Shown piece by piece: positions 1,706-32,149 of a stretch of 64,000 nucleotides of DNA. Each line of letters begins with the position of its first letter. The first letter of the stretch is position 1. The notes beneath the pieces are model-generated. The model was not told where the DNA came from, ran no database searches, and worked only from the letters and a program-made list of their open reading frames with translations. A program made the translations under genes and the position numbers. The stretch lies in assembly GCA_025061115.1 (NCBI GenBank), contig JANZKC010000002.1, forward strand, positions 32,001 to 96,000, given 5' to 3'. The stretch is from Candidatus Culexmicrobium cathedralense (GTDB lineage: Archaea; Thermoproteota; Methanomethylicia; Culexarchaeales; Culexmicrobiaceae).

Positions 1706-2832
1706 TCACAAACTATTACCTTTACCTCCATGCTTATATGCTATGGCGCAGGCACCTTCGCTAGAAACCATGCATGGCCCAACTGGATTTAGCGGATTAC
1801 ACGTCCTAGCAAAGAGCGGGCATTCCCATGGCATTATTAGACCTCTTAAAACATCGCCACACCTGCATCCCGGAGGCATTTCATAGCTCTCTTCAACCTC
1901 AAGGTCAAATTTCAACTCTGCATCATACTTCTCAAACTCACTTTTAAGCTTCAATCCCGAATTCGGAACCCTACCAATTCCCCTCCAGTCGGCATCGTAA
2001 ATGTCAAATACTTCCTTCATCATTCTCTGCGCCTTCACATTGCCCTCCTCCTTAACAACCCTCGCATATTCATTGAAAACATCATAGTGACCCTCCCTAA
2101 TCATTTGAATGAGCATCGCAGTTCCTATCAAAACATCAATCGGCTCAAATCCAGCTATGACCATTGGAGCCCTAAACCTCTTCGCAATCGGTCTATAAGG
2201 TTTAACTCCAATTATAGTTGAAACGTGACCTGGACAAATGAAGCCATCTATTTTAAGTTCACCGAGCCTAAGCAGGAACTCCATGACCGGCGGAATAAGC
2301 AGGTGAGTGCATATTATCGAGAAATTGCTGGGAGGCTTTTCAAGCAGAACTGCAGCTGTGGATGGAGCAGTAGTTTCGAATCCAATTGCAAAGTGAACCA
2401 CCTCCTTATCCGGATTATTAAGAGCTAACTTAACCGAATCCCAAATACTATACACCACAACAACATTTCCACCCATGGACTTAGCTTCCATAAGCGATTG
2501 CCTCGTCCCCTTAACCCTAAACATGTCTCCAAAAGTAGTTACTATCACGTCATTCCTCATTGAAAGCTCAACCGCCTCCTGAACTTTAACTGGAGAAGCC
2601 ACGCATACTGGGCATCCTGGACCTGCTCTCAAATCTACTTTAGAAATTAAACTTCTAATTCCAAAGTGGGTTATCGTATATTCGTGAGTCGGCCAGCCGC
2701 TTAATGCGGCTGTGTGCCGCACACATGCATAACTAGGAACCTATCCTCACCGCACAACCTATTTATATATGCAACCAACTTCTCAGCCAATTTCCTATCC
2801 CTATACTTTGAAATCAAATCGAGAAGTTCCAT
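1706..2832 (-). CDS. hypD: [NiFe]-hydrogenase maturation protein HypD, split by a 26-nt BHB intron (exon 1 2832-2714, exon 2 2687-1706; 366 aa spliced)
   Basis: Exon 1 gives MELLDL...MHVCG(T). Exon 2 gives HEYTI, GPGCPVC, GFETT, PGHVS, GFEP and the C-terminal CxC...C...C...PVGPCMVSSEGAC Fe-S motif. GGGGGTGA lies 5 nt before ATG 2832. Confidence 0.95.
2688..2713 (-). other. Predicted bulge-helix-bulge pre-mRNA intron, 26 nt (ACAGCCGCAUUAAGCGGCUGGCCGAC)
   Basis: mRNA GUG|CGGC|AC^A|CAGCCGC-AUUAA-GCGGCUG|GCCG|AC^U|CAC: 4-bp central helix, two 3-nt bulges, 7-bp inner stem and an exon-exon outer stem. Removal restores GGC ACU CAC GAA (G-T-H-E). Confidence 0.88.
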
Positions 2833-2846
2833 CACATTCACCCCCA

Positions 2847-3329
2847 TCAGCTTGCCAATGCATAATATAGAAGTGAAAATGCAAATGCGCAAACCGCAAA
2901 GTTAGCTAAATGATTATCATACCTTACATTTGCAATTTTAAAGTCCATTCCATGCTTAATAAAGAAATCCAATGTGAAACCAATAGTTCTAACTCCAGAA
3001 GGATTTAGCGCATCCAAAAGCCAGTGAAGAAAGACAGCTAAAGCAGCAACTACGGGATTAAAGCGAATCAAATACGCAACTATTGGAGCCAATGCAGTAA
3101 ACGTATAAACGCTATGCGTTAACCCGCACCTATGCTGAATTAACCCCTTAAACAAGTGGTCAAAATCAGGAGCTATACCAAATATTGCACCCTGAACTCC
3201 AAGAGAAATAAACGAAAGATCAACAAATGAAGCTAAATCGGATTGAATATCAACTTCAAACCCATATAGAAGCTTAGCTAGAATTACAGAAAAAGTCCAG
3301 CCCACAACTAAATGCGTGTACTTCTGCAT
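2847..3329 (-). CDS. Membrane-bound metal-dependent hydrolase (YdjM-like)
   Basis: TH, PDFDH, HRxxxTHS and HWLLD motifs in a hydrophobic protein; ATG 3329 after GGAG; 14 nt upstream of hypD on the same strand. Confidence 0.8.
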   Translation of the reverse strand: MQKYTHLVVGWTFSVILAKLLYGFEVDIQSDLASFVDLSFISLGVQGAIFGIAPDFDHLFKGLIQHRCGLTHSVYTFTALAPIVAYLIRFNPVVAALAVFLHWLLDALNPSGVRTIGFTLDFFIKHGMDFKIANVRYDNHLANFAVCAFAFSLLYYALAS

Positions 3330-3736
3330 TACAATCTCCACAAATGAGAAGCAGGTAAGCACTTATTAAATTTTGGAAGTTAATGGTGCAACCTTAATTT
3401 GAAACTTTTAAAAAGGCTTGATTTGAAGGTGCCCTAGAACCTACCTCCTAAAAAGACTTAGAAGCAGCTGAGCAGTATAGGGAAGAGATCGAGAGCCTGT
3501 CTTGCAACGTTAAATAAATTAGTTAACTAAGGAATTCATAGGTAATGAAATTTACAAGCAGTTTTTAGCTTAGGTAGCTAGAGAGCTCCTTTAAGTTAGT
3601 GGTTTTCCATTCCGTTAGTTTAGTTACTCTAGATGTTTAAAATAACTATGGACGCTGAGTTAGGAGAACGTTATCTCGTTCATATTGCAGTCTGATATCT
3701 GCTATAATTGGCCGTTGAGTTGGCTTAGAAAATTAC

Positions 3737-4570
3737 TTAAAATATGTTATTGTTTTTGGGTTTTATTTTGAATTGGCAGTATGGATCTCCTCTTGCTATG
3801 CATTTGGTTTCGATGGCGATTACTTCCTTATTAAAGAAGCTGCCAAACCATCCTGCCATCATTCCTCTAACGAGGTGTGATTCTGGCTTGTTAGATCCTT
3901 TGAAGAGTTCACATTCGAAGCCGTCATATATTTTCACCGTTGCTTCGCATTTATCTAAATCATAGTATTCAACTTTCATAATTCCGCTTCCTGCATGTTG
4001 GAATAAGGTCTGTGCAGTCTTAATCAGCTTCTCCGGATTCCTCCCCGCAATCTTTTTATGCGATTCATACGCTAATCGTCCAATCTCATATCCCGCGAGG
4101 TAAAGGATCATATCATATCCGGTGCCTATCTTCTCCCTCAGCACTTTACTTAATGCTAAGTAGTTTCTCTTGTAAAATATAATTGCCCTTTCACCGCCAA
4201 CCATAAATGGGAAGAAGTAGGAATCAATTGTGAAGCCATCGAACAATGGAGTAATAATCCTAACATCCTTAACGTATGACAGCCTCCTCAAAATTGTGAG
4301 AAGATTAAAAGCGACGTTCACGTCTCGCCCACTTAAATCAATAAAGACAACCGCATGAGACTTCCCTTTAGGATTAAAAGAGACAGCAAGATGAATGATC
4401 GGAATACCTCTTGAAGAAAAGGCCTTAGTAATTTGCCCCAAAATACCAGCATGATAAATCGCCCTCTCATCCAATACAAAATGAAAACCATAAACAGTCC
4501 TATTGGGAAAATGAACAAACAACTGAAAATTAAAGGGAACCTCCCCTTCAACCAAACCTATCATATCCAA
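3737..4570 (-). CDS. ACT-like plus V4R domain ligand-binding protein
   Basis: N-terminal ACT-like GILGQIT segment; C-terminal V4R motifs FEC...RGMMAG...ETKCIARGDPYCQF. Confidence 0.8.
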   Translation of the reverse strand: MDMIGLVEGEVPFNFQLFVHFPNRTVYGFHFVLDERAIYHAGILGQITKAFSSRGIPIIHLAVSFNPKGKSHAVVFIDLSGRDVNVAFNLLTILRRLSYVKDVRIITPLFDGFTIDSYFFPFMVGGERAIIFYKRNYLALSKVLREKIGTGYDMILYLAGYEIGRLAYESHKKIAGRNPEKLIKTAQTLFQHAGSGIMKVEYYDLDKCEATVKIYDGFECELFKGSNKPESHLVRGMMAGWFGSFFNKEVIAIETKCIARGDPYCQFKIKPKNNNIF

Positions 4571-5271
4571 TTTTAAACCTCCACGAAATAATGTATAAGA
4601 TATATTTTTAACAATTTATCTTACAAAATCATTTAGCCTAGGATACAATTAAATAGTTGTCCATTATGCTTAATATTTCACATAAGACATACTTTTGCAC
4701 TTGTTACCTTCACTTTCTTTTCCTTTCAGGATGCCTGTCTTATAGGAGTGTGACTGCATTACATAACGCATGAATCTTCGGATGGGACTTACAGCTACAA
4801 TGCTTTGAGTGATCATCATGTTCCATTTAGGTTGAATTGCACGGCTGTGATTTTCTACAATTACTTAACTACCGCTCCCTATCAACACCATCCAATGTCT
4901 GAGAGAATCCTAAGGAGAATTCATTCGAGAAAATTGAGATTAGAAATGGCGGGAGTTAAATTAAATGTCTAAGTAATAAGGATCTCAATAGGCTACTTAA
5001 AACGGCTAGAGAAACATATGCATTTAAAGAACAACTAAATAATTTATCAAAGTAAATTATAGCATAAAGCAAAATCCAATAAACTCTTTATTGCATAAAA
5101 TTATTATTTCTTAGTGTTTCACTTACTTTCTGCTTAGCAGTCGTTTTACTTTGAATTCTCTAAATACATTCTATGTTTACAGCATCCCTCGATCGTAGAA
5201 CGTATTTAAATCACCACCGAAATACCATTAAGTACTTAAAATTCCCTTCAAAATCCATTCTAGTGGAGAGT

Positions 5272-6522
5272 ATGCCAGCTAGAATCTCGCCAACATTATG
5301 CGCGCAGTGTAAGGGAAGTCGAAGGCTTTGTGGGAGAATTAAGTGTCCAATATTAGTTAGACTTGAAGCTCAATTGGATCTCGAGGAAAAGCTAAGGCGA
5401 AATGTAGTTTTTGGAGCAACGCCGCCGGAGATTCTTGTTGGAGAATTTGGGTACCCTGAAGTTAGAGTCGGTCCTTTAATACCTCCAATTCTTGATGATG
5501 AAGTCGCAGCAGAATACGGAAATCCTTCGAAATGGTATGGCAAAAAGCTTGAGGATATCATTAAGATTAGATCTAAAATTGTAAGAGCAAGTTTTAAAGT
5601 TAAGGTTAGAGAAGCCTCAACGCTAAGTAGTAGGCTTTTAAATTTAACTCAAGAGTTAGCAATGTCCATTAAGCCAGTCGATACTGAAGCGCACTTCCGT
5701 AAGCCTCCAACGCCGAGAATAGCTTTTGACGGAGTATTATCTCCAATTGGCCCATCAGCTAACATTAGGAAGTTAATTATCGCAGAAAATCCATCAGTTC
5801 CAAAGCGAGTCGAACAGGCAATATATGATTATGATGCTAGAGCCAGCATAATTGTTGGAGAGCTCTACGACAGAGGATACTCAAACTATTATTTAACACA
5901 ACTATTAACAGCAGGGCTTCTCGGCCAAAGACGCGAAAGACGCATAGTACCAACTCGATGGGGAATAACAGCCGTAGACTCCATAATTGGAGATCACATC
6001 CTAGAGAAAATTAGGGATTATCAAGAGCTCAACCAAATACTACTATACTCAAACAGCTACCTCGACAATCACTACTACATTCTACTAATGCCAGGAGCGT
6101 ATGCATTTGAAATGATCGAAATCTGGCTTCCACAGACAGTTTGGGTAAAAGAGGTCAAACCCTACATAGTAGAAAACTTCGAACTATACGATGGTAAGTG
6201 GAGGAGGAGCGACATAGACGGAGGATACAAGGCAATGCGACTGGCTGTACTAGAACATTTAAACAAGATTAAAAGGCAAGCAATGACCCTAGCAGTAAGG
6301 GAAATAGGTCCAGGATATTACTGCCCAGTTGGCGTTTGGCAAGTTAGAGAGGGGATGAGAAAAGCATTTCTGAAAAAGCCACAGAGATTCTCCAGCATAG
6401 ATGAAGCACTAAAAATTATTCAAACAAAAATTAGAGTAAAGCCTCAATACTGGATTAATGAAGCGCGAATTGTGAAGTTATTCAAGTTTCAAAGAAAAAT
6501 AACATCATATTTTAAGCAATAA
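5272..6522 (+). CDS. nreA: DNA repair protein NreA (Nre family)
   Basis: CxxCKG...LCG...CP N-terminus, VPTRWGITAVD, PVGVWQVRE, C-terminal PIP box QRKITSYF; ATG 5272 after GGAG. Confidence 0.9.
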   Translation: MPARISPTLCAQCKGSRRLCGRIKCPILVRLEAQLDLEEKLRRNVVFGATPPEILVGEFGYPEVRVGPLIPPILDDEVAAEYGNPSKWYGKKLEDIIKIRSKIVRASFKVKVREASTLSSRLLNLTQELAMSIKPVDTEAHFRKPPTPRIAFDGVLSPIGPSANIRKLIIAENPSVPKRVEQAIYDYDARASIIVGELYDRGYSNYYLTQLLTAGLLGQRRERRIVPTRWGITAVDSIIGDHILEKIRDYQELNQILLYSNSYLDNHYYILLMPGAYAFEMIEIWLPQTVWVKEVKPYIVENFELYDGKWRRSDIDGGYKAMRLAVLEHLNKIKRQAMTLAVREIGPGYYCPVGVWQVREGMRKAFLKKPQRFSSIDEALKIIQTKIRVKPQYWINEARIVKLFKFQRKITSYFKQ

Positions 6523-31972: not shown

Positions 31973-32149
31973 TACTGGACACCGCCAATAGCTAAAGCAT
32001 TATAACTGATGACCATATAATTAATTAGCGCTTTTCATGTATAAGAATAAGGACTCCCCAAGCTCCAGTAAAATTTAAAGCTCAAAGCTCAAATCAAAAT
32101 GCCTGAATCAACTTCTAACCAACAAAGTAGCTAAAGCAGGTGGCGCTGC

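Follow-up and report, generated by a model that had tools for sequence, protein, structure and literature searches.

Introns of protein-coding genes that the enzymes of tRNA splicing excise rank among the rarest gene structures known. The established case is the cbf5 pre-mRNA of Crenarchaeota (Watanabe, 2002; Yoshinari, 2006; Yokobori et al, 2009), which carries a short insert resembling the bulge-helix-bulge motif (BHB); it is cut by the splicing endonuclease EndA in lineages with a heteromeric enzyme, the exons are then ligated (PMC2738675; PMC10485636), and its patchy distribution is explained by gain and precise loss (PMC2738675). Yokobori et al, 2009 report splicing confirmed in no gene besides cbf5, the others being predicted only (PMC2738675), and a 2023 review counts two spliced archaeal mRNAs, cbf5 and HVO_1309, with more expected (PMC10485636). 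Here we describe an insert of 26 nucleotides (nt) in hypD of Candidatus Culexmicrobium cathedralense, located at positions 2713–2688 on the minus strand of a 64,000-nt stretch of its genome (assembly GCA_025061115.1, contig JANZKC010000002.1, forward-strand positions 32,001 to 96,000; hereafter the window). From its structure and its conservation, this insert is very probably an archaeal BHB intron of the hypD pre-mRNA that is spliced out, and not the mark of a broken gene.

The hypD insert resembles the cbf5 intron in being a short BHB insert within a protein-coding gene, and the present genome (G000) itself carries a 20-nt insert in cbf5, which we liken to the published intron by gene and not by matched position. 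It differs in its host gene, which encodes the hydrogenase maturation factor HypD, and in its motif: that of cbf5 is described in the review as more relaxed than the motif of pre-tRNAs (PMC10485636), whereas that of hypD is strict, its outer, central and inner helices having 4, 4 and 7 base pairs (bp) and its two bulges 3 nt each. HVO_1309 of Haloferax volcanii is likewise an archaeal mRNA with a BHB motif that is cut by the splicing endonuclease and, according to the review, spliced (PMC10485636). Its organism is from a different phylum and has a homodimeric endonuclease. Work by Schwarz in 2020 reportedly placed its site in the 5′ untranslated region. In contrast to HVO_1309, the hypD insert breaks a codon of a catalytic motif, so that splicing would be obligatory for function.

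With the pre-tRNA introns at position 37/38 the hypD motif shares an identical geometry (PMC6379350) and cut rule, and four tRNA introns of this genome, of 12–24 nt, come near its 26 nt in length; the difference is that the hypD substrate would be an mRNA without a tRNA body, in which the exonic parts of the motif are conserved codons. HAC1/XBP1 offers a functional analogy only, namely a small spliceosome-independent intron in coding sequence that is removed by a protein endonuclease, with a change of frame and, in metazoa, joining by RtcB. The XBP1 intron also measures 26 nt. There, however, the endonuclease is IRE1, the motif consists of two stem-loops and splicing is stress-regulated, whereas hypD shows no sign of regulation. 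The 2023 review introduced above is one that we take to be the work of Hayne and colleagues.

hypD is thus a new host gene for a known intron mechanism, notable for its strict motif, for its position in a codon of a catalytic motif and for the depth of its conservation. Our literature search returned no report of a BHB intron in hypD; most subscription journals lay outside its scope, and an earlier mention is possible. The matched passages of the papers on Culexarchaeia and Methanonezhaarchaeia contain no hypD breaks and no occurrence of the word ‘intron’. The initial annotation of this locus, made from the DNA letters, had set cbf5 beside it as the well-established mRNA case; that comparison needs extending on two points: the review also counts HVO_1309 (PMC10485636), and the present genome likewise has an intron in cbf5. 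With hypD as a third host gene, the field would gain a clean substrate for tests and a second system in which the gain and precise loss of introns could be studied.

hypD occupies positions 2832–1706 of the window, on the minus strand like all features of the motif described below, with 26 extra nt inside the Thr codon of its CGTHE motif. The upstream frame (open reading frame (ORF) 2701–2892) runs to ...FLVMHVCG and continues as T-Q-P-H-stop, so that, read literally, it stops four codons into the break. The downstream frame, THEYTITHFGIR..., carries THEYTI... and ends at the stop at 1706. This split of one codon between two different frames, as first annotated, was borne out to the base. Exon 1 (2832–2714, 119 nt) extends from the ATG at 2832–2830 to the AC of the split Thr codon and encodes MELLDLISKYRDRK...FLVMHVCG; this start codon is our choice, and a GTG at 2835 or an ATG at 2846 is also possible. 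The predicted intron (2713–2688, 26 nt) starts with the third base of bulge 1 and, after the inner stem-loop and the 3′ strand of the central helix, ends with the first two bases of bulge 2. Exon 2 (2687–1706, 982 nt including the stop) opens with the T of the Thr codon, followed by HEYTITHFGIR...

Together with its flanks, the insert forms a strict hBHBh′ motif, in which two 3-nt bulges lie on opposite strands with a 4-bp helix between them. Specifically, the outer helix pairs TGTG (2723–2720, in the exonic Val and Cys codons) with CACG (2686–2683, in the exonic His and Glu codons) over 4 bp, including one G-U. The central helix, also of 4 bp, pairs CGGC (2719–2716, in the exonic Cys and Gly codons) with the intronic GCCG (2693–2690). 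Bulge 1 is ACA (2715–2713), with the 5′ cut predicted by the BHB rule between 2714 and 2713, and bulge 2 is ACT (2689–2687), with the 3′ cut predicted between 2688 and 2687. The inner helix (2712–2694) comprises 7 bp, 2712–2706 with 2700–2694, and closes the loop ATTAA at 2705–2701. The helices, the bulges, the 7-bp stem and the outer UGUG/CACG pairing all lie where the initial annotation had drawn them. In tRNA numbering the intron falls between positions 37 and 38, below the 5-bp anticodon stem, and this is the basis for placing each bulge 3′ of its helix strand and the cut after its second base. The published definition of the BHB is two 3-nt bulges with a 4-bp helix between them, at the exon-intron boundaries (PMC6379350).

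Excision of 2713–2688 joins 119 and 982 nt into an ORF of 1101 nt, with 366 codons plus a stop and no internal stop, which confirms the size first proposed for the spliced gene; its product is colinear with intron-less homologues. Aligned with the uninterrupted HypD of the relative G003, the spliced protein is identical at 294 of 366 positions, and the alignment is gap-free from −15 to +25 residues of the junction. The exon 1 product by itself aligns gap-free to the N-terminus of G003 HypD (27/39 identical) and had no Pfam match, and exon 2 matched the HypD family PF01924 over positions 28–350 of 351 (E 9e-133) and the hypD model TIGR00075 over positions 42–366 of 372 (E 9e-129); these family matches come from the separate exons and not from the spliced product. 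In the mechanism that we propose, conserved codons of the exons (5′ Val-Cys-Gly, 3′ His-Glu) would make up the outer helix and one strand of the central one, whose other strand would come, with a GC-rich inner hairpin, from the insert. A heteromeric EndA, with an α-like and a β-like subunit, would cut after the second base of each 3-nt bulge, and RtcB would ligate the exons, restoring the Thr codon of CGTHE and giving the 366-residue HypD; the 26-nt piece would be released, probably as a circle.

The minimum free energy (MFE) fold of segment 2670–2740, calculated with ViennaRNA, has −23.9 kcal/mol (z −2.6; 3 of 200 shuffles equal it), with the central and inner helices formed and bulge 1 unpaired; hypD fails a filter that demands both bulges unpaired in the MFE fold. 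No match to Rfam was found within 2300–3100. A permissive scan of the whole genome returned 3289 BHB-like motifs, 163 of which could bring two open frames together, for the most part at the boundary between genes; the scan behind these 163 required an outer helix of at least 3 bp and missed cbf5, so it under-detects relaxed motifs. Both helices are kept in the motif's own fold in six of the 163, among which hypD is by far the most stable. The other five were unconvincing (one of them, at index 461412 of contig C1, is the beginning of an Mre11-like gene). Judged from one sequence, the statistics are therefore modest, and the case against chance rests on comparison with relatives.

The class used for comparison is the one that holds Candidatus Methanomethylicota archaeon WYZ-LMO11 and comprises 62 genomes. 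Of 41 related genomes, counting the present one, 35 yielded a HypD, and the junction was read at 30 loci: in 12, again counting the present one, an insert interrupts the same codon, and in 18 there is none (among the intron-less genes, L021 has V-H in place of M-H). A pattern scan of the class, in which the Gly third base, hairpin, bulge spacing and inner sequence were left free, detected the insert in 13 of the 62 genomes, in four families, with no hit for the reversed-pattern control. Beyond the present genome, these are 9/10 in family f7, 1/4 in f1, 1/1 in f2 and 1/6 in f3, with 0/32 in f5 and 0/4 in f4. In addition, a scan of JGI metagenome contigs yielded 50 loci, of which 48 belong to hypD and have a hairpin insert in this codon; the other two, L178 (an intron-less hypD matching by chance) and L195 (not hypD), were discarded. 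Across class genomes and metagenomes the insert ranges from 20 to 37 nt. A looser pattern run on 401 genomes of the phylum gave five matches outside the class (L050–L054), none of them in hypD, and its reversed control gave a similar number; the hypD insert was not found in 340 sampled phylum genomes outside the class. Among the matches listed, a wider related-locus search of genome contigs returned mostly distant HypD genes, which served as outgroups.

The inserts of the 13 class genomes measure 26, 28, 26, 23, 21, 22, 22, 20, 22, 21, 23, 22 and 25 nt, and despite these mixed lengths the bulge cut rule rebuilds ACN followed by CAY GAR in frame in 13/13. These lengths bear directly on ribosomal recoding, in which the insert would stay in the mRNA and be skipped by programmed frameshifting or by hopping of the T4 gene 60 type, with the hairpin as stimulator. 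A stable hairpin does stand directly after the interrupted codon, and the present genome has a Thr codon both ahead of the gap (ACA) and as the triplet that precedes the resumed frame (ACT), as hopping would have it. However, the lengths fall into all three modulo-3 classes (remainder 0 in two genomes, 1 in six and 2 in five), so no constant shift fits, and both inserts that are in frame, those of G024 and G028, contain a stop codon. The landing triplet is non-Thr in 8 of the 13 (AAA, ATA, AGT three times, AAC, ATT and ATC), leaving the matched codons of hopping absent; no stop codon follows right after the take-off site; and hopping would not need two conserved 3-nt bulges four base pairs apart. 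The variable modulo-3 length excludes programmed frameshifting and codon-matched hopping, and we regard recoding in any form as extremely unlikely.

In the 13 class sequences, 96.6% of 177 cells pair, compared with 30–41% when the 3′ partners are slid by 1–3 columns; 7 of 15 pairs change on both sides, and the covariation score was reached by 0 of 500 shuffles. The inner helix pairs in 95.9% of its cells, with 6 of 7 pairs changing on both sides, and keeps its pairing in variants as different as CAGCCGC/GCGGCTG, CAGCCAG/CTGGCTG, CGGG/CCCG and CGAGGC/GCCTCG. In the outer helix 94.2% of cells pair; pairs 8-50, 10-48 and 11-47 are invariant, and pair 9-49 is GC in 5 sequences, AU in 3, GU in 2 and unpaired in 3. 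Every cell of the central helix pairs in 13/13, its last pair being C-G in seven and U-G in six. The initial annotation had looked to relatives for presence and absence of the insert and for compensatory changes in the CGGC/GCCG helix: both states are indeed found and compensatory changes occur, but in the inner stem, the CGGC/GCCG helix showing only the C-G/U-G alternation. When metagenomes are included, 49 distinct sequences give 95.9% paired cells compared with 33–38% for slid partners, with 83 cells changed on both sides, in an alignment fitted to a covariance model, which favours the structure.

Codons on either side of the insert carry a further signal. The third base of bulge 2 varies between T, A and C among relatives and its first two bases are AC, AA, AT or AG, so that the third base appears to behave as the wobble base of a Thr codon. 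The third base of the Gly codon, which pairs in the central helix, is C or T in 13/13 insert-bearing genes and A or G in 11 of 18 intron-less ones. These patterns would be left unexplained, as would the bulges, if HypD were made as two polypeptides of about 43 and 330 residues with the hairpin as an intercistronic element. ORFs do lie on both sides of the break, and a GTG at 2722 opens a frame of 338 residues. Yet what is interrupted is a codon, and one of the conserved CGTHE motif, a start at the GTG would add residues read from the insert, and the start position is not conserved, as the sequence and length of the insert vary. A split gene is, on this evidence, barely conceivable.

The gene is literally frameshifted, which is what a hypD broken by a small palindromic insertion and now decaying would show. 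The insertion behind such a pseudogene should not, however, turn up at a single site in 13 genomes from four families, as well as in 48 metagenome contigs, with its shape kept and its sequence changed. Both exons are open in all 12 insert-bearing genes examined, and exon 1 is under purifying selection, with a ratio of non-synonymous to synonymous substitution rates (dN/dS) of about 0.1–0.3 in 7 of 9 insert-bearing pairs and a saturated dS in the other two; G036, whose contig is cut, was left out of both comparisons. Moreover, hypD is single-copy in this genome (one match), which also encodes HypC and has four or more ORFs containing [NiFe]-hydrogenase large-subunit domains, and a decaying copy would be the sole hypD beside several hydrogenases. 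Among the 40 relatives searched, 10 of 11 that bear the insert likewise have one hypD match, and G009 has two, the second copy being divergent. Decay of the gene is exceedingly improbable in the light of these data. A repeated mobile element was rejected because the 26-mer is unique in the genome, with no second copy at up to 4 mismatches.

That the insert is present in the DNA, as first annotated, was confirmed in independent assemblies. Logan contigs of four DNA runs from four studies span 2684–2722 and carry the insert with no indel and no joined form. One of them, X1, may be the source sample of the genome. Run X2 differs by 6 substitutions in 801 nt and run X4 by 4 substitutions in a 399-nt piece covering the site, none of them inside the insert, and X2 and X4 are distinguishable strains. 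The genome is metagenome-assembled, and this is what speaks for an assembly or sequencing artefact; the contigs of the four runs exclude an assembly artefact, related inserts recur in independent genomes and metagenomes, and the chance of an artefact of either kind is negligible.

The enzymes that the proposed BHB splicing of hypD would need are encoded in the genome. Two EndA-family genes (PF01974, above cut-off) are 31% identical to each other; in two-repeat EndA models (NF006795), the product of 186 residues matches the catalytic C-terminal repeat and that of 174 residues the structural N-terminal one, from which we infer an α-like and a β-like subunit that would form a heterotetramer. There is one RtcB gene, and the contig of hypD also carries it, the β-like EndA gene and cbf5. 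ARAGORN reported 47 tRNA genes, 17 with introns, so that the splicing enzymes have ample regular work here. For 4 of the 15 tRNA introns of up to 120 nt (Gln-CTG, Glu-CTC, Glu-TTC and Leu-GAG; 12–24 nt), the strict motif with the cut rule gives exactly the position and length reported by ARAGORN. ARAGORN also reported a tRNA-Phe with a 637-nt intron (C2:258860-259571) and a tRNA-Ser with an 1895-nt intron (C4:125827-127817), which may be artefacts, very long introns or split genes.

With EndA and RtcB at hand, cleavage could conceivably occur without joining, as an mRNA-decay or down-regulation switch like the yeast TSEN targets, or splicing could be conditional. Endonuclease-initiated mRNA decay without ligation is described for yeast in the review (PMC10485636), and ligation in hypD is deduced from sequence and not from an observed joined RNA. 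But cleavage alone would leave no HypD with an intact CGTHE from the sole copy of a gene that is kept under selection, RtcB is present, and the wobble behaviour of bulge 2 is understandable only for exons that become joined and translated. We consider cleavage without constitutive joining highly unlikely. The initial annotation had read the insert as a functional pre-mRNA intron, and this reading is supported, every prediction that could be tested on sequence having held.

Several points nevertheless weigh against BHB splicing of hypD. The single-sequence fold statistics are moderate (z −2.6), and the outer helix lies in a slightly shifted register in the MFE fold. The central helix and most of the outer helix are invariant and hence without covariation signal, and the exonic strands of both are held fixed by conserved amino acids as well. 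The search patterns demanded AC, GCCG/GYCG and CAYGA, so that the Thr codon and the restored frame are partly built in, and the relatives share ancestry, so that counts overstate the support. The strict motif did not reproduce 11 of the 15 ARAGORN tRNA introns, which may have relaxed motifs, non-canonical positions or a misplacement by ARAGORN, and the rule was thus checked on few substrates. The genome is a metagenome-assembled one with an estimated contamination of 7.65%. Finally, cleavage, ligation and constitutive splicing are steps that we infer for a locus known here from DNA alone.

In the HypD tree (FastTree), insert-bearing genes occupy three of four sister clades: 6 of 10 rows in the clade of f1–f3, 18/18 in f7, 16/16 in a metagenome-only clade and 0/10 in f5. 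The metagenome-only clade (16 distinct rows within L149–L192, for example L157, L170, L183 and L189) has inserts of 28, 33 and 37 nt, those of 33 nt keeping one conserved mismatch in the inner stem. On a 35-row IQ-TREE tree the insert trait needs at least three state changes. This distribution is compatible with one old gain and later precise loss from G003 and from genus g5 of family f3 (also from f5, if the gain predates it) and does not prove it, the root and the order of the four clades being unsettled, so that gain and loss are not separable. Close relatives differ by the exact presence or absence of the insert, as L004 (G003) from L003 (G004), and L006, L008 and L009 (g5) from L007 (G009). 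The Gly codon of the intron-less G003 is GGG, which is unable to pair in the central helix, and judged from its sequence this is the relaxation expected after intron loss.

hypD is not the only protein gene of this genome with such an insert. A scan for GC-rich motifs without an outer helix gave nine candidates, of which hypD, cbf5 and a helicase gene look real. cbf5, which lies outside the window, is split at about C2 254290-255310 on the plus strand (L035:1139-2157), with the 20-nt insert at L035:1366-1385 in the catalytic Asp codon of GTLDP. Its first ORF encodes the DKCLD domain and ends in ...GHGGTLEP-stop, and the next frame encodes TruB_N (positions 16–149), TruB_C_2 and PUA. The insert has a CCCT/GGGG central helix, bulges AGA and AAA, a GCCC/GGGC inner stem and an outer helix with a bulged A, and the cut rule used for hypD rebuilds the catalytic GTLDPKVTG. 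An insert at the same site was found in 16 of the 62 class genomes (in f1, f4, f7 and f8, with 0/32 in f5), with covarying inner stems and a control of 0. Such a distribution would take the range known for the cbf5 intron past Desulfurococcales and Sulfolobales.

The third gene, ResIII/Helicase_C (XPB-like) at C5:1311-2871 on the minus strand, has a 52-nt insert at C5:2414-2465 (L198:1404-1455) inside Walker A. It folds as a BHB with a loose outer helix, and the same rule joins ...LQACTG to SGKTEVA... No orthologue of this helicase was found at E 1e-30 or better in 40 relatives, and, as its contig C5 is only 35.7 kb long, it may be a contaminant or belong to a mobile element. That a simple motif-plus-frame scan of one genome gave three candidates suggests that a systematic search would be worthwhile. 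The remaining six candidates of the GC-rich scan include C4+22137 and a 37-nt motif at index 629288 on the plus strand of C1 (C1+629288), removal of which fuses frames of 68 and 252 codons between flanks that look low-complexity.

Gene callers that are blind to BHB motifs would probably report hypD and cbf5 of these lineages as truncated or frameshifted, and a mis-called hypD can distort reconstructions of hydrogen metabolism in Methanomethylicia-related archaea. A more far-reaching proposal would make the hypD BHB intron ancient and obligatory, tie hydrogenase maturation to the tRNA-splicing machinery and place the intron within a wider, overlooked set in protein genes of Methanomethylicia-related Thermoproteota, to which the cbf5 and helicase inserts of this genome would also belong; in its boldest form splicing would be conditional, with EndA and RtcB gating HypD as IRE1 gates XBP1/HAC1. 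We consider this proposal unlikely as it stands.

No hyp gene adjoins hypD in the window, and hypC lies on contig C4. On the downstream side of hypD, an ABC-transporter-like ORF, assigned by motifs, occupies 2–1606 on the minus strand. On the other side, a gene for a YdjM-family membrane protein (2847–3362, minus strand) has its stop just upstream of the hypD start, and genes for a V4R-domain protein (3737–4570, minus strand) and an archaeal Nre protein (5173–6522, plus strand) lie further away.

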